Of a DNA stretch of 64,000 nt, positions 30,060 through 38,807 are shown piece by piece. The notes below the pieces were generated by a model. It saw only the letters and a program-made list of their open reading frames with translations. It did not search any database and was not told the origin of the DNA. Source of the DNA: a virus (taxonomy: Duplodnaviria > Heunggongvirae > Uroviricota > Caudoviricetes). The DNA is taken from IMG/VR virus record IMGVR_UViG_3300035208_004239, positions 259,611-323,610 of that record; one strand, 5' to 3'. A program made the translations under genes and the position numbers. The number at the start of each line of letters is the position of its first letter. Within the stretch, counting starts at the first letter, position 1.

Positions 30060-30350
30060 TTATTTAATAGTGTCATCTTCTAAAAAAAATTGTGCGAAAT
30101 TTGGATCAATAATGATATCATCGTAGTTTCCCAAAGTATCTTTAATGTAAAATCGATATGTATTAATTGTACCTATAGAGTCTTGTTCAATTTTAAGAAT
30201 AATACTTCCTTTATATTCGTTAACATTATCAAATTTAACGAATGTACAACTACTACAAGAACTTAACAACAAATATAATACTAATGCGCTAAGTCCAAAT
30301 GTAAATATAAATGAAAATAAAAAAGCTAAAGTATTTTTTATTGTTTTCAT
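30060..30350 (-). CDS. small lipoprotein/secreted protein
   Basis: Signal peptide with LLLSSCSSC lipobox-like Cys. Confidence 0.4.
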   Translation of the reverse strand: MKTIKNTLAFLFSFIFTFGLSALVLYLLLSSCSSCTFVKFDNVNEYKGSIILKIEQDSIGTINTYRFYIKDTLGNYDDIIIDPNFAQFFLEDDTIK

Positions 30351-30841
30351 AAAAATTTAGTTAATATTTTGTGTTTAATACCACTTTGTTTAATACCTTC
30401 ATTTGAACGTGGTGTTATAATAAAATTATCTGGAATCCAAGTAGATAAATCAAGATCGTCAATAGCAACATATTGACATATGTCAATATGTTCATTAATG
30501 TATTGTAATATCTCCATTGAACGACATTCTTCTAATTCTTGTAAACTAAAATATTTGATACCCCATAAATTAGGGGTCTTATCAAATATTTTAGTTTTAA
30601 CACCATTTATTTCAAAGATACGGTTTAAAATATCGAGAGTATAATCCTCTTTCCAATCACTGGATAAAACTATACGTAAATCACTAATTTTTTCAATAAT
30701 TTGATTAAAAACATTTACGCATTTTTCATCAAACCTATAACGATTATATTCAGAATTCCATTTCTTTCTATTAGTGTAATATTGCATTGTTGTTGCTAAT
30801 ACACCGTCAATATCAAGAAATATATAATTATATTGTTTCAT
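30347..30841 (-). CDS. HAD-superfamily hydrolase-like protein
   Basis: N-terminal motif I FLDIDGVLATT (DxDGV). Confidence 0.45.
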   Translation of the reverse strand: MKQYNYIFLDIDGVLATTMQYYTNRKKWNSEYNRYRFDEKCVNVFNQIIEKISDLRIVLSSDWKEDYTLDILNRIFEINGVKTKIFDKTPNLWGIKYFSLQELEECRSMEILQYINEHIDICQYVAIDDLDLSTWIPDNFIITPRSNEGIKQSGIKHKILTKFL

Positions 30842-34359: not shown

Positions 34360-35112
34360 ATGAAGTTTTTAATTCAAAAAATAAACGGGAAAATTACTCA
34401 TGATTTTTCTTTTACATTATTAAAATCAATTGAATATCAAAATTGGTTGCACCGGGATTCCTTCATTAAGTTTAAATATTTCAATACTATTTGTCCGGAT
34501 GGTGAAAATTTTAAATATTTTGAATTTAATTCTTCTCATAAAAATTATGTGCCTGTTGGTAGTGTAGAATTTGTAATAGTATTTTTAGAAAAATTCTATG
34601 GGCTTACACCAAAACCACTTAATGTTCCCGAAGAACTTTTTGATCCATATTATTCTTCTCGTCCAATTTTTAATGAAAATAATACGAGTTTGAAAATATA
34701 TAATGATTTTAAATGGTTTGTTAAAAGTAATGATAAAATAAAGGGGTTTTCAGAAATTATTAAACTATCAAAACCATATTCAATTCCAGAAGGTAATTAT
34801 CAAATTTCAGAATATATTAATATTTATAGTGAATGGCGTGCGTTTATATATAATGGAAAATTAGTTGGATTACAAAATTATTCTGCCGAATTCACTAAAT
34901 TTCCAGACATTAATAAAATTCATGCTATGATAAAAGCATATAAATCAGCACCAGTAGCATATACTTTGGATGTAGGTATTGATGGTTCAAATAATACATT
35001 TGTAATTGAATGTCATGATTTCTTTTCCTGTGGATTATATGGATTTGCAGATCATAGAATATATCCACAAATGTTATATAAATGGTTTAAGAATTATATA
35101 AATAAAAAATAA
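34360..35112 (+). CDS. ATP-grasp-fold-like protein
   Basis: C-terminal YSEWRAFIYNGKLVGLQNY ... AYTLDVGIDGSNNTFVIECHDF resembles ATP-grasp core (E-x-N end motif). Confidence 0.35.
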   Translation: MKFLIQKINGKITHDFSFTLLKSIEYQNWLHRDSFIKFKYFNTICPDGENFKYFEFNSSHKNYVPVGSVEFVIVFLEKFYGLTPKPLNVPEELFDPYYSSRPIFNENNTSLKIYNDFKWFVKSNDKIKGFSEIIKLSKPYSIPEGNYQISEYINIYSEWRAFIYNGKLVGLQNYSAEFTKFPDINKIHAMIKAYKSAPVAYTLDVGIDGSNNTFVIECHDFFSCGLYGFADHRIYPQMLYKWFKNYINKK

Positions 35113-36257
35113 TGGAATTTCCAAAACTTTATAAAAAAACCAGTACTGGTGCAATTCAGGAATGGAATGTTAGTGTTGTTATAATTGATGATATAATTAA
35201 CATTGTCAATAAATACGGACAATTAAACGGGAAAATTCAAGAAAGTTGTGAAAAAATTCATGAAGGTAAAAATACTGGTAAAGCCAATGCCACAACTGCT
35301 ATTGAACAAGCCGAATCGCAAGCTAAAAGTCGTTGGGAAAAACAACTCAAAAAAGGTTATGTGGAAACTATTGATGATGCCAAAGCAGGTAAAATTAATG
35401 ATATTATCGAAGGTGGTATCTTTCCGATGCTTGCACATAAGTTTTCGGAGCAGGAAAAGAAAATTAAGTTTCCCGCATTAGCACAACCTAAATTGGATGG
35501 TCACCGCAGTACAAGTCAATATGAAAATACTGTGGTTACGATGTGGAGTAGAACACGTAAACCAATTTTAACTGTACCACACATTGTTAATACTCTTGAA
35601 AATTGTGGTCTTGCCGATAGGTTCGATGGTGAACTTTATAATCATGATTACCGTGAAAATTTTGAAGAATTAACTTCGTTAATAACACCGGATGAACCCC
35701 AAGAAGGTTACGAAAAAATTCAATATCATGTTTATGATTTGGCACTTCCTAACCTTAGTAATTATGATAGATATTTAATCCTTGAAGGATGGCGATCTCA
35801 ATTCGAAAACACTCCGGTTCATATTGTTGAAACTCGTATTGTTAATAATAGAGAAGAATTGATGCAAGCATATGAAGATTTCATGGAACAGGGTTATGAG
35901 GGTGCGATTGTTAGAAATTTTGATGGAAAATATGTTTACAAACGTTCGTATGATTTACAAAAGGTGAAATTCTTCGATGATGATGAATTTCGCATTGTAG
36001 ATATAAAAGTTGGTACAAAAGGTAGTATGGCTGGTAAAGCAGTCTTTATTTGTGAAAGAATTAGAGAAGATCAAAAACTTCCAGAAGGTATAACTTTTGA
36101 TTGTAAACTCAAAGGCGATATGAGTAAACTCAAAGAATATGCAGATGACCCATCACTTGTAATTGGAAAAATAGTTACTGTTCAATATCAAGGATATACG
36201 AGAAAAAATATGAAACCAAGATTTCCGGTTGCATTACGATTTAGAGTAGATTTATAA
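35112..36257 (+). CDS. ATP-dependent DNA ligase
   Basis: Motif I KLDGHR, motif III DRFDGELY, motif IV EGAIVRN, motif V QKVKFF. Confidence 0.8.
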   Translation: MEFPKLYKKTSTGAIQEWNVSVVIIDDIINIVNKYGQLNGKIQESCEKIHEGKNTGKANATTAIEQAESQAKSRWEKQLKKGYVETIDDAKAGKINDIIEGGIFPMLAHKFSEQEKKIKFPALAQPKLDGHRSTSQYENTVVTMWSRTRKPILTVPHIVNTLENCGLADRFDGELYNHDYRENFEELTSLITPDEPQEGYEKIQYHVYDLALPNLSNYDRYLILEGWRSQFENTPVHIVETRIVNNREELMQAYEDFMEQGYEGAIVRNFDGKYVYKRSYDLQKVKFFDDDEFRIVDIKVGTKGSMAGKAVFICERIREDQKLPEGITFDCKLKGDMSKLKEYADDPSLVIGKIVTVQYQGYTRKNMKPRFPVALRFRVDL

Positions 36258-36810: not shown

Positions 36811-37041
36811 ATGATAAAATTTTTAAAAGAAAATGGTTTTCCGATGACATTAATCCTTGATACTGTTGAATATAATGATAAAGAAAATGAATTCAATGGT
36901 TTTTTAACGATTATCAATGATGATCAGGAAAATGAAATTATTAAATTTACTCATACTGATCTACGTGCCAGAATTCATTGGGTTGAAGGATTTTTTACTG
37001 CATATAAAATGTTTAAAAAAGAACCAATTAATTTACAATGA
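36811..37041 (+). CDS. hypothetical protein
   Basis: 76-aa ORF. Confidence 0.35.
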   Translation: MIKFLKENGFPMTLILDTVEYNDKENEFNGFLTIINDDQENEIIKFTHTDLRARIHWVEGFFTAYKMFKKEPINLQ

Positions 37042-37436
37042 AATTTAAAGCACTTAGAAAAAAAGATACTAAAGAATTCATTTATTTTCTCGTAAATGAA
37101 AATTTAAAAATAAGTCTTGGTACTTATATAAGTAAACTTCCTAATCCAATGGCTATTACTGCAACAATGGAAAATGTGAAAGAATATTATTCACAATTCA
37201 CATCAAATTTTGATTTTAATAATATTGAATTAATTGAATTTGATATGTTTGAATCAGATGTTGTTGGTGCAGATATAAGAAATAAACTTACACCACTTAA
37301 AAATCTTCCAGCAATGTTAAAAATATTGAAAAAACGAAAAATAACTAAAGAACAAAGAAAAAAAATAAAAGAATTAATTGAAGTAGAAATAATAAGATGT
37401 GAAAAAAATGTTGATTATATCGCAAATTTATTATAA
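37038..37436 (+). CDS. hypothetical protein
   Basis: 132-aa ORF, ATGA overlap. Confidence 0.4.
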   Translation: MKFKALRKKDTKEFIYFLVNENLKISLGTYISKLPNPMAITATMENVKEYYSQFTSNFDFNNIELIEFDMFESDVVGADIRNKLTPLKNLPAMLKILKKRKITKEQRKKIKELIEVEIIRCEKNVDYIANLL

Positions 37437-37483
37437 TTTTATGAAAAATATTTAAAATAATGGCAGGGCATTGAACCCTGATG

Positions 37484-37618
37484 TGTTGTGTGGTGGAAGG
37501 GTAGACACTCCGGGCGCAGAGATACTAAAAAAGCAATAAAATAAAAACTATTTTAGTCAGCCGGAATAGCGAAGAGTCTCTATAATGCTAAGTGCAGGTT
37601 CGAGTCCTGTCACAACCT
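37484..37618 (+). tRNA. tRNA-like unit 1 (non-canonical, about 135 nt)
   Basis: T-arm gcagg-ttcgagt-cctgt; 3' acceptor cacaacc pairs 6/7 with tgttgtg at 37484-90; D-arm-like gtg-gaagggtaga-cac; stem tccgg/ccgga encloses a 47-nt loop; 28-nt hairpin before T-arm. Confidence 0.3.
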
Positions 37619-37840
37619 CAAAATAGTTCTTTGAAAATGTTAGTCTTTTTACTGAAAATAAATAATGATTACACCCTAAAAAAACCAGAGTCACAGGGAA
37701 AGGTGAGGCGTGGCTCAATCATAGTTAAACCAAATTAACACCATTTATTGTAAGATATTTGTCGATAGACAAGGAGTATGTGGGTTTGGGCACATATAAA
37801 TATTCTGTATTTTGGAACAGATGAAAAGACTAATTTTTAT

Positions 37841-38000
37841 GATCGGATAACTTAATTGGTAAAGTCATATTTTGAGTTGAGTCGTCCAAAACACATACAC
37901 GCAAATCCTTGTCAGCGAAAGCGAATATAAGTCAGTATGTGATATGCTAAAAGGATAAAACATTAACCTTTTAATGTAAGTTCGAGTCTTGCTCCGATCA
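37841..38000 (+). tRNA. tRNA-like unit 2 (about 160 nt; cloverleaf ends with expanded anticodon-side loop; tentative Leu(GAG)-like reading)
   Basis: Acceptor gatcgga/tccgatc perfect 7 bp; D-arm actt-aattggtaa-aagt with GG; stem atatt/gatat encloses 69 nt beginning ttgagtt (U33, GAG); long variable hairpin aaaagg/cctttt; T-arm gtaag-ttcgagt-cttgc. Confidence 0.45.
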
Positions 38001-38158
38001 CGAATCCTAACACGGTGGCTACGTGTTGAAATGTCGGATAACGTGCCTGATAGTTATAAAACTGAAAGGTTTGAATGCCAAAAAGAAGGAACGACAGGAA
38101 GGAAAGTTTTCGCTAAACCTAAGTTTGCCAGTTTTATGAAGACAAAACTGGTTAATTT

Positions 38159-38311
38159 GAATGATTGGCAGAATGTAAAATGCTACAGTTGAAAGTTTGG
38201 CAATAGGCGTTGAGTACAAGTCCATACAGAAGGGCAGGAAAGAAAATGCGATTATGTCCAATACTGGAACGGTAATGTAAAACCGTGTGGGTTTAAATCC
38301 CATATCATTCA
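38159..38311 (+). tRNA. tRNA-like unit 3 (about 153 nt, same architecture)
   Basis: Acceptor gaatgat/atcattc perfect 7 bp; D-stem ggca/tgct; 4-bp stem cagt/actg enclosing 73 nt; variable hairpin acgg/ccgt; T-arm gtggg-tttaaat-cccat. Confidence 0.4.
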
Positions 38312-38470
38312 TTTTATAATAATTTCTAAAAGATCAAGATATTCATCGGACAATTATTGATAAATTTTTTCTGAAAAATTTTTTTCAATATTCAAAAGGA
38401 TAGTCAGCCATATAGAGATATATTAACATATTTTCTTATATTAAAACAGTATTTATATTAAAAAGATTTT

Positions 38471-38737
38471 ATGATTACTTTACATAATTTGGAGCTACAA
38501 AAAATTATTGAACATATGGCTATTCATATTCATGAACAAGCAGTACAAATTCGTAAAGATTATGAAATTCTTCCCGGAATGATAAAATTGTATGCAGATT
38601 TTGCAATTTATTGTACTGATGATAATAAATATTTTTCGTTTCATTATGTGGTTTATGTTGATAATAAAGGTGAAAGATTCCATATTGTGACTTGGACACC
38701 TGCAACACAGGATGAGTTTTTAGATTCAATTAATTAA
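38471..38737 (+). CDS. hypothetical protein
   Basis: 88-aa ORF. Confidence 0.35.
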   Translation: MITLHNLELQKIIEHMAIHIHEQAVQIRKDYEILPGMIKLYADFAIYCTDDNKYFSFHYVVYVDNKGERFHIVTWTPATQDEFLDSIN

Positions 38738-38807
38738 AAAATAATAAAATTTAATTATATTTTCATTTATTTTTTGTATCATTGTGTAATAAAAAATAAT
38801 TACATAT

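Follow-up and report, generated by a model that had tools for sequence, protein, structure and literature searches.

Probable tRNA-derived 'shell' RNAs with structured cargo, and a conserved pseudoknotted RNA that abuts them, at a non-coding locus of a large AT-rich phage

A 64,000-nucleotide stretch of viral DNA (positions 259,611 to 323,610 of IMG/VR record IMGVR_UViG_3300035208_004239; referred to here as the window) contains three tRNA-shaped units of 135–160 nt within positions 37484–38311 of its plus strand. Each retains four parts of a Leu-type, class II tRNA: the acceptor stem, the discriminator, the T arm and the D arm/elbow. We consider it probable that the three units are non-decoding, tRNA-derived 'shell' RNAs which carry a structured cargo in place of the anticodon arm. 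The best explanation of the locus as a whole, which we hold with the same confidence, is a single untranslated operon with the order shell RNA 1, an S1 leader with a boxA-like element, shell RNA 2, a conserved RNA that we call X, and shell RNA 3. The source is a large AT-rich phage, probably with a Bacteroidota host. The shell RNA family is widespread and apparently undescribed. A full-text literature search, with most subscription journals outside its reach, returned no earlier description of these RNAs, and among 50,697 cultured-phage records blastn gave no real match to the locus or to X.

Three tRNA-shaped units in a non-coding gap

For about 1 kb, the DNA that holds the locus has no plausible open reading frames (ORFs). 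The window is AT-rich phage DNA, and at the locus the GC content rises from about 22% to 34–40%. The units and their parts are as follows.

37484..37618, plus strand: unit 1 shell RNA ('class D'), discriminator U at 37618
37484–37490 (UGUUGUG) with 37611–37617 (CACAACC), plus strand: unit 1 acceptor stem, 6/7 paired, U1·C72 mismatch
37492–37508, plus strand: unit 1 D arm, GGUGGAAGGGUAGACAC
37509–37513 with 37561–37565, plus strand: unit 1 closing stem, insert of 47 nt at 37514–37560
37566–37593, plus strand: unit 1 hairpin at the variable-arm position
37594–37610, plus strand: unit 1 T arm, GCAGG-UUCGAGU-CCUGU
37841..38000, plus strand: unit 2 shell RNA ('class B', subfamily B1), discriminator A at 38000
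37841–37847 (GAUCGGA) with 37993–37999 (UCCGAUC), plus strand: unit 2 acceptor stem, 7/7 paired
37850–37865, plus strand: unit 2 D arm
37866–37870 with 37942–37946, plus strand: unit 2 closing stem, CAUAU/AUAUG
37871–37941, plus strand: unit 2 cargo, 71 nt
37891–37898 with 37935–37941, plus strand: unit 2 cargo helix, ACACAUAC/GUAUGUG
37915–37922, plus strand: unit 2 cargo GNRA hairpin
37948–37973, plus strand: unit 2 hairpin at the variable-arm position
37976–37992, plus strand: unit 2 T arm, GUAAG-UUCGAGU-CUUGC
38159..38311, plus strand: unit 3 shell RNA, discriminator A at 38311
38159–38165 (GAAUGAU) with 38304–38310 (AUCAUUC), plus strand: unit 3 acceptor stem, 7/7 paired
38168–38183, plus strand: unit 3 D arm, degenerate Leu-type
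38186–38189 with 38263–38266, plus strand: unit 3 closing stem, CAGU/ACUG, enclosing 73 nt
38269–38286, plus strand: unit 3 hairpin
38287–38303, plus strand: unit 3 T arm, GUGGG-UUUAAAU-CCCAU

An earlier reading of the letters alone (the first-pass annotation) had described three T arms, each with a 7-nt 3′ acceptor strand; these are present, starting at 37594, 37976 and 38287 of the plus strand. The coordinates also bear out its account of the 7-bp acceptor stems, with six of seven pairs formed in unit 1 and perfect pairing in units 2 and 3. The common layout that it proposed holds for the closing stems of 4–5 bp, which enclose 47 nt in unit 1, 71 nt in unit 2 and 73 nt in unit 3, but not for a variable hairpin of 28–30 nt in every unit: this hairpin measures 28 nt in unit 1, 29 nt in unit 2 and only about 20 nt in unit 3. 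The textbook D arm that it saw in unit 2 is indeed there, but not in unit 2 alone, as all three D arms resemble that of tRNA-Leu. The 3–70 pair is U–A, U–A and A–U in units 1, 2 and 3, respectively, and the minimum-free-energy fold of unit 3 is a cloverleaf.

The 7-bp acceptor stem (6/7 in unit 1), the discriminator and the 5-bp T stem with its 7-nt loop are those of a canonical tRNA. The rest of the canonical set, namely a 5-bp anticodon stem, a 7-nt loop with U33, a purine at position 37 and a total length of about 72–95 nt, is absent from the three units. To gauge how often such an architecture arises by chance, both strands of the 64-kb window and of shuffled windows were scanned for a T arm combined with a perfect 7-bp acceptor stem. 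The scan returned units 2 and 3 (two matches in 470 nt) and one low-complexity match elsewhere, against a mean of 0.4 per shuffled window; the earlier view that the arrangement exceeds chance is thus upheld.

Standard tools pass over the units. ARAGORN in default mode reports no tRNA in the whole window, and Rfam gives no match there at the gathering threshold. A permissive search with the Rfam tRNA model (RF00005; threshold 29 bits) finds unit 3 at 28.8 bits, with 77 nt treated as an insert, but not unit 1; unit 2 has no tRNA match in Rfam even when searched alone. Neither ARAGORN -m nor RF00023 finds a transfer-messenger RNA (tmRNA) in the window. Standard annotation therefore overlooks such genes, as the silence of both programs on this window illustrates.

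Homologues of the units and conservation of the cargo

Related loci were numbered L001–L166, the first three related viral contigs having been reached via the DNA ligase gene. An alignment of unit 2 with its homologues in L001, L022 and L113 has a cloverleaf consensus with 35 pairs, seven of which are changed on both sides. Such pairs occur in the acceptor and T stems, in the closing stem and in the cargo helix, as well as in the hairpin at the variable-arm position. In the closing stem, CAUAU/AUAUG is replaced by CAUGU/GCAUG, and the GNRA hairpin of the cargo covaries by eye (GC-GAAA-GC and GU-GUAA-AC). Three long blocks of the cargo are invariant (GAGUCGU, CAUACACGCA and AAGUCAGUAUGU) while the D arm drifts. 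With its invariant blocks and compensated helices beside a drifting D arm, the cargo of unit 2 is under selection. Sites complementary to its conserved single strand, GAGUCGUCC, are no more frequent in the window than expected by chance.

These homologues also bear on the anticodon. The first-pass annotation had taken UUGAGUU, at the start of the enclosed loop of unit 2, as U33 followed by a GAG (Leu) anticodon; the homologues support another register of the stem, CAUAU/AUAUG.

For unit 1 we found one homologue, in L050 (AGUUGUG..CACAACU+U, 159 nt), in which the D arm is the same and the 3′ third is conserved. The closing stem is compensated between the two (UCCGG/CCGGA and UCGAG/CUCGA), so that the covariation check proposed by the first-pass annotation gives a positive answer for this stem as well as for those of unit 2, including its acceptor. 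A scan with 14-mers for further homologues of unit 1 gave 120 mostly chance matches, of which only L050 is real. A hairpin lies directly 5′ of unit 1 and is missing from the L050 homologue:

37464..37480, plus strand: hairpin CAGGG-CAUUGAA-CCCUG

No homologue of unit 3 turned up when all fetched loci were searched by blastn or when viral contigs were scanned for a T-arm pattern.

X, a conserved pseudoknotted RNA directly 3′ of the shells

DNA comparison with related contigs showed that the spacers between the units are also conserved. The hairpins that the first-pass annotation had seen in them are present, but its description understated the case: the spacer between units 2 and 3, X, is the most conserved element of the locus.

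38001..38152, plus strand: X RNA, beginning 5′ CGAAUCCU
38009–38027, plus strand: invariant hairpin of X, AACACG-GUGGCUA-CGUGUU
38032–38037, plus strand: helix b of X, UGUCG(G), followed by the conserved single strand AUAACGUGCC
3′ part of X, plus strand: two variable hairpins, a′ (AGGA), b′ (CGACA), the conserved GGAAGGAAAGUUUUCGCUAAACCU and a terminal hairpin GCCAGUUUU..AAAACUGGU

The consensus of 63 X sequences begins with an 8-nt 5′ segment, followed by the 6-bp invariant hairpin with the loop NUGGCUN, helix b and AUAACGUGCC. Its 3′ half comprises from none to two variable hairpins, contiguous a′ and b′ strands, a GGAAGGAAAGU..CGC..AAACCU tract and a covarying terminal hairpin. Because helices a/a′ and b/b′ cross, they form a pseudoknot. 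In the alignment, 92.5% of the cells are paired, and two-sided changes are seen at all ten variable pairs. For the pseudoknot the covariation score is 0.451; shuffles give 0.147 (none of 500 reaches the observed value) and slid controls no more than 0.113. In many relatives a run of U comes after the terminal hairpin and makes it a terminator.

A 19-nt motif of X, AACACGNTGGCTNCGTGTT, was found in 29 IMG/VR viral contigs, and at least 119 loci in metagenomes also have it; of its distinct copies, about one third are chance matches in GC-rich coding DNA, and 76 distinct true copies of X remain after filtering. A longer form of the motif also matches a Dyadobacter (Bacteroidota) prophage, in which X follows tRNA-Gln. 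X is about 120–185 nt long across copies (for example L002:9567-9710, L007:4796-4925 on the minus strand, and L165), and the titles of the contigs point to marine, freshwater, soil and gut metagenomes.

The junction between X and its upstream neighbour is exact. In 59 of the 76 distinct copies the first base of X directly follows the discriminator of a tRNA or tRNA-like gene, and the first three bases are CGA in 72 of the 76, irrespective of the discriminator. In L106 no tRNA precedes X, and a promoter-like TAnnTTTG box stands there instead. X could be freed by RNase Z or by self-cleavage. A search of positions 37000–38800 against Rfam, with HDV-like/theta, hatchet, glmS and other self-cleaving ribozyme families included, gave no match to X at E < 10. 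With its exact junction, its conserved CGA and a pseudoknot in which the 5′ end takes part, X leaves room for the idea of a self-cleaving ribozyme, as does the parallel with theta ribozymes (see below); this is a minority possibility, though a real one.

We also considered, and rejected, X as an RNase P RNA. Look-alikes of CR-I (GGAAAGUCC), CR-IV and CR-V come in the wrong order, and the 'CR-IV' look-alike is in part one strand of the covarying helix b. A P4-like pairing of the invariant loop UGGCU with AAAGUCCGC is uncompensated in the clades with AAAAAUUUCGU or AAAGAUUUCGC. The RNase P RNA models of Rfam do not match at X.

An RNA ligase gene (Pfam match to PF09414) lies directly 3′ of X in L002 (9739–10599), and a homologue that is 72.7% identical lies beside X in L001 (11304–12167). 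In L030, to judge from the sequence, the start of the same ORF probably follows X from about position 1990 onward. A tblastn search with the L002 ligase finds no such gene in the window.

Several observations concern the surroundings of X in other contigs. In L001 (9356–10189, minus strand), and also in L011, L039, L062 and L091, a Cys-rich ORF with zf-FCS repeats lies on the opposite strand between a class B unit (see below) and X; its insertion leaves an AT-rich pseudo-T-arm remnant directly 5′ of X and looks like that of a mobile, homing-type element. The arrays of L012 and L028 that hold X include several tRNAs with 6- or 8-nt anticodon loops, which ARAGORN reports as 'tRNA-???' (gaag, ggaa, gt, at). 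A tmRNA gene (Rfam, 78 bits) at 1702–2067 of L164 lies in a tRNA-array contig that also holds X, and is presumably phage-encoded. Finally, L166 (JBAZIW010000001.1, 362,763 nt; IMGVR_UViG_3300029288_000055) carries the RNA locus and was deposited as a 'Candidatus Paceibacterota' metagenome-assembled genome; it is probably a mis-binned huge phage.

Classes of shells and their acceptor identities

Three kinds of gene stand 5′ of X: ordinary tRNAs (for example an 86-nt tRNA-Leu(UAA)) and two kinds of shell, class B and class A, whose definitions were built from the units adjoining X. In class B the acceptor is GAUUGGA/GGUUGGA..UCCAAUC, with G1–C72, U3–A70 and A73. The T arm is normal and the D arm, UGGCGAAAUUGGUAGACGC, is that of tRNA-Leu, but 20–150 nt of varying structured sequence stand in for the entire anticodon and variable region, so that the units total 79–218 nt. 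Class A units are 97–112 nt long, with invariant G1–C72, C2–G71, G3–C70 and U73, and a hairpin with a 5–8 nt loop (for example GGGAA) replaces the anticodon arm. Their long hairpin bears the palindrome GGUGCACC or ACGUGCACG, through which two molecules could form a kissing dimer. No class A unit occurs in the window; those located elsewhere are

L002 9465–9565 and L031 7102–7206, and units in L032, L050, L061, L071, L082 and L151: class A units

Acceptor pairing, but not the T stem, was among the criteria by which the units were selected. The T stems pair in 14 of 14 class A units and in 20–21 of 21 class B units, and each position shows several pair types. Moreover, some relatives with inserts of 41–70 nt score above the gathering threshold of the Rfam tRNA model (L036, 36.6 bits; L064, 36.2 bits; L054, 34.3 bits), as does a class A unit of L030 (34.0 bits). 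Five paralogues in L127 (184–2066) have a common acceptor (AGUCAGG..CCUGACU+A) and a common T arm around unrelated interiors, with totals of 78–155 nt; this is the pattern of a constant shell with a variable cargo. The tRNA-like shell is kept in dozens of contigs from several environments. Canonical tRNAs were not found near the locus in the closest relatives, so that the shells are the sole tRNA-like genes there.

Such strict identities raise the question of whether the acceptor end itself is the functional part. The shells would then be acceptor-end mimics of tRNA, either charged by leucyl- or glycyl-tRNA synthetase (LeuRS or GlyRS) as non-ribosomal amino-acid donors or serving as decoys for defence enzymes that attack acceptor ends, with processing secondary. 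The anticodon arm contributes little or nothing to recognition by LeuRS and GlyRS, and the identity rules for Gly and Leu are well established: class A shows the bacterial Gly set, and class B combines A73 with a Leu-type D arm. The acceptor identity is strict within each class, the hypervariable interiors of paralogues with identical acceptor stems look like the outcome of an arms race, and RNA-repair genes are present in the same genomes. The units of the window, however, have diverged acceptor stems, that of unit 1 being mismatched at 1–72, and the exact abutment of X and the shells would be left unexplained. We regard this alternative as unlikely, though worth keeping in view.

Absence of a usable anticodon and of known intron signatures

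The first-pass annotation had offered three readings of the units: tRNAs with a novel kind of intron or ribozyme, decayed tRNA genes, or tRNA-derived regulatory RNAs or decoys. The last, taken as tRNA-derived RNAs that do not decode, fits best. In the first, an intron in the anticodon loop would be removed by self-splicing, or by a phage endonuclease and the neighbouring RNA ligase, to give class II tRNAs of about 90 nt. The inserts do lie at the position of the anticodon loop. In intron mode and at default stringency ARAGORN calls unit 2 a tRNA-Ser(GCU) with a 71-nt intron; at -ps90 it also calls unit 1 as Leu(CAG) and unit 3 as Trp(CCA), the intron being placed before U33 in units 2 and 3, and unit 3 would yield the textbook loop UUCCAAU. 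An RNA ligase beside X in relatives and a phosphatase of an RNA-repair type in the window would suit such a route.

These calls turn out to be uninformative. When only the interiors were shuffled, ARAGORN still made calls for units 1, 2 and 3: at default stringency 41, 62 and 5 of 200 cases gave one, and at -ps90 the numbers rose to 190, 197 and 131. Orthologous shells with the same acceptor are assigned to Ser, Tyr, Stop, Phe, Leu or Lys, or to nothing, and class A units are not called even in intron mode. The anticodon proposed for unit 2 lies inside a 7-bp hairpin that covaries (UAAAAGG/CCUUUUA, CUAAUGG/CCAUUAG, CCAACGG/CCGUUGG). If the intron is placed at 37/38 instead, the four unit 2 orthologues would have the anticodons UGA, UGU, UGU and UGG, all with G37; by what is generally known of tRNA modification, the usual rules for position 37 do not fit this placement, nor is the identity constant. 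Nor would a long variable arm and A73 be orthodox in a tRNA-Trp.

Searches for known introns gave the same answer. A custom scan for bulge–helix–bulge (BHB) motifs (helix, 3-nt bulge, 4-bp helix, 3-nt bulge, helix) found 2, 1 and 0 in units 1–3, compared with 0.5, 1.4 and 1.0 in shuffled sequences, and none anchored on the closing stem of any of the three units. An EndA/Sen splicing endonuclease, which the phage or its host might supply, had no Pfam match among the 58 window ORFs scanned. The catalytic core of group I introns (P3–P9) usually exceeds 200 nt; with inserts of 47–73 nt and no Rfam group I match, the earlier argument against group I introns stands. Rfam models of group I and group II introns, hammerhead, twister, pistol, hatchet and HDV ribozymes match neither the window nor relatives whose inserts range up to about 150 nt, and the small-ribozyme core that the first-pass annotation had suggested looking for in the inserts did not appear. 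The units thus have no usable anticodon and no known intron signature, and an intron of a new kind is improbable. As a warning, intron-aware tRNA finders will report an intron-containing tRNA in almost any sequence with a good acceptor/T-arm shell.

Pseudogenes of tRNAs in the course of decay, or hairpins arranged in this way by chance, would agree with the lack of a unit 3 homologue, the mismatched first acceptor pair of unit 1 and the drifting D arms of the unit 2 subfamily, but are scarcely credible given the two scan matches within 470 nt, the compensatory changes in the stems of unit 2, an insert better conserved than the D arm and the recurrence of the family in many contigs from several environments.

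The S1 leader and its boxA-like motif

Between units 1 and 2 lies a second conserved spacer, S1.

37619..37840, plus strand: S1 leader/spacer RNA, beginning at the base after the unit 1 discriminator
37625–37637, plus strand: boxA-like motif, AGUUCUUUGAAAA, a single exact copy in the window

S1 contains the hairpins GAGUCAC..GUGGCUC and UAUGUG-GGUUUGGG-CACAUA, and its 3′ end is a U-rich run, AAUUUUUAU, directly before unit 2. Positions 37624–37726 are 86% identical to L018, and 37744–37840 lie within a 72% match to L001. Conserved hairpins of S1, among them GAGUCACAGGGAAAGGUGAGGCGUGGCUC and GGAGUAUGUGGGUUUGGGCACAUAUA (window 37640–37840; L018 6172–5945, minus strand; L001 8867–9185), may be part of one or more further structured RNAs.

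In related contigs the motif has the form (A)GUUCUUUGA(A/C)A and lies between Bacteroidota-type TAnnTTTG −7 boxes and arrays of tRNAs or non-coding RNAs; contigs with the motif in such leaders include L008, L012, L015, L018, L024, L028, L049 and L097. We rejected GTTCTTTGA as a general phage promoter: it has only one exact copy in the window and behaves as a leader element of RNA operons. The boxA consensus is GCUCUUUAACAA in E. coli and UGUUCUUUGAAAA in Gram-positive bacteria. By analogy, the likeness of the S1 motif to the boxA of rrn operons suggests Nus-factor antitermination of untranslated phage RNA operons, and the motif fits one long non-coding transcript that would need to escape Rho. 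Antitermination by boxA of long untranslated transcripts and non-coding arrays, including in Bacteroidetes, is documented (PMC7665894).

A model of processing and its weak points

The tRNA features that the shells keep are those recognised by RNase P, RNase Z and the CCA-adding enzyme, and the acceptor/T-arm stack with the elbow suffices as a minimal substrate for RNase P and RNase Z. We propose that the host Nus/boxA system would take RNA polymerase through the untranslated, hairpin-rich transcript and that RNase P would cleave at the 5′ end of each shell. Upstream of the shells, the leaders are rich in U and have AU as their last two bases, so that a U-rich leader with U(−1) would precede the cut site. 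A cut after the discriminator would free the 3′ end of the shell and, at the same time, define precisely where S1 or X begins. In this way the precursor would be divided into stable, tRNA-capped RNAs and X.

The conserved cargo of unit 2 and the strictly kept acceptor identities of each class suggest that the shells are more than punctuation, with charging, decoy or partner roles as candidates. The first of these is also a difficulty for the model: shells that served purely as punctuation would leave the strong conservation of the unit 2 cargo unexplained, so that the cargo must do something more. Other points weigh against our preferred explanation as well. Unit 1 has a single homologue; unit 3 has none, and could be a lineage-specific decaying copy. 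The assignment of boxA is a resemblance to the general consensus. RNA-repair genes, namely a HAD_SAK_2 gene in the window and the PF09414 ligase beside X in L002, L001 and probably L030, could in principle serve a protein-based splicing route.

A more elaborate reading would make X a new self-cleaving or end-defining ribozyme that cuts after the discriminator, and the shells CCA-tailed, possibly aminoacylated, non-decoding mimics with a fast-evolving cargo directed at host defences that target tRNAs, the whole being a so far unrecognised RNA toolkit of large Bacteroidota phages; we give it a low probability.

Comparison with known systems

The closest parallel in architecture is tmRNA, in which the 5′ and 3′ ends also form an acceptor stem beside a normal T arm and a large domain replaces the anticodon arm. 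It is matured by the enzymes that process tRNA ends, as we propose for the shells. However, tmRNA has G3·U70, a reading frame for the tag and a ring of pseudoknots in about 350 nt, none of which is found in the shells of 135–160 nt. In MALAT1/mascRNA, mitochondrial 'tRNA punctuation', engineered tRNA scaffolds and the stable RNAs C and D of the phage T4 tRNA cluster, a tRNA fold guides RNase P and RNase Z and releases or stabilises a neighbouring non-coding RNA; the engineered scaffolds carry their cargo in the anticodon arm, as the shells do. Unlike these modules, to which we liken them by architecture alone, the shells are natural, phage-encoded and multi-copy, with class-specific acceptor identities and a partner RNA, X. 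The YrlA group of bacterial Y RNAs (PMC4201824) are also non-coding RNAs with a tRNA-like module of acceptor, T and D arms, but there the RNA termini form the Ro-binding stem and not the acceptor stem. The YrlA model (RF02553) has no match in the window and one weak, sub-threshold match in L139.

As for X, the theta ribozymes (minimal HDV-like ribozymes; PMC10879173) are likewise structured RNAs directly 3′ of Bacteroidota-phage tRNAs with RNA ligase genes enriched nearby, by 140-fold in the phages that carry them (PMC10879173). X also resembles the HDV fold in that its crossing pair of helices begins at the 5′ end. Yet X is about 150 nt long compared with about 50–60 nt for theta and has no match to the HDV family in Rfam; in contrast to HDV-type ribozymes, a′ and b′ are contiguous, so that a catalytic C would have no J4/2 to occupy, and bases 1–4 of X are unpaired. 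The GOLLD and ROOL RNAs (PMC12286853) share with X their phage origin, strong structure and habitual place in tRNA islands, but X is far smaller and lacks an Rfam match.

Genomic setting

The proteins encoded around the locus were surveyed by a Pfam scan of 58 window ORFs (51 of at least 150 amino acids and seven shorter ones near the locus), the whole genome being about 360 kb. Two of the genes bear on the points discussed above.

35112–36257: ATP-dependent DNA ligase, from the scan of window proteins
30347–30841, minus strand: HAD_SAK_2 phosphatase ('Swiss-army-knife' RNA-repair type), about 7 kb upstream of the locus

Other proteins encoded in the window include a Dda-like helicase, SbcCD-like nucleases, two sigma factors, DHFR, NADAR and NUDIX.

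Implications

X offers a specific candidate for a ribozyme or RNA-processing element of a new kind. If transcripts confirm the shells, these would represent a natural and widespread use by phages of the tRNA fold as a carrier or processing handle for structured RNAs.

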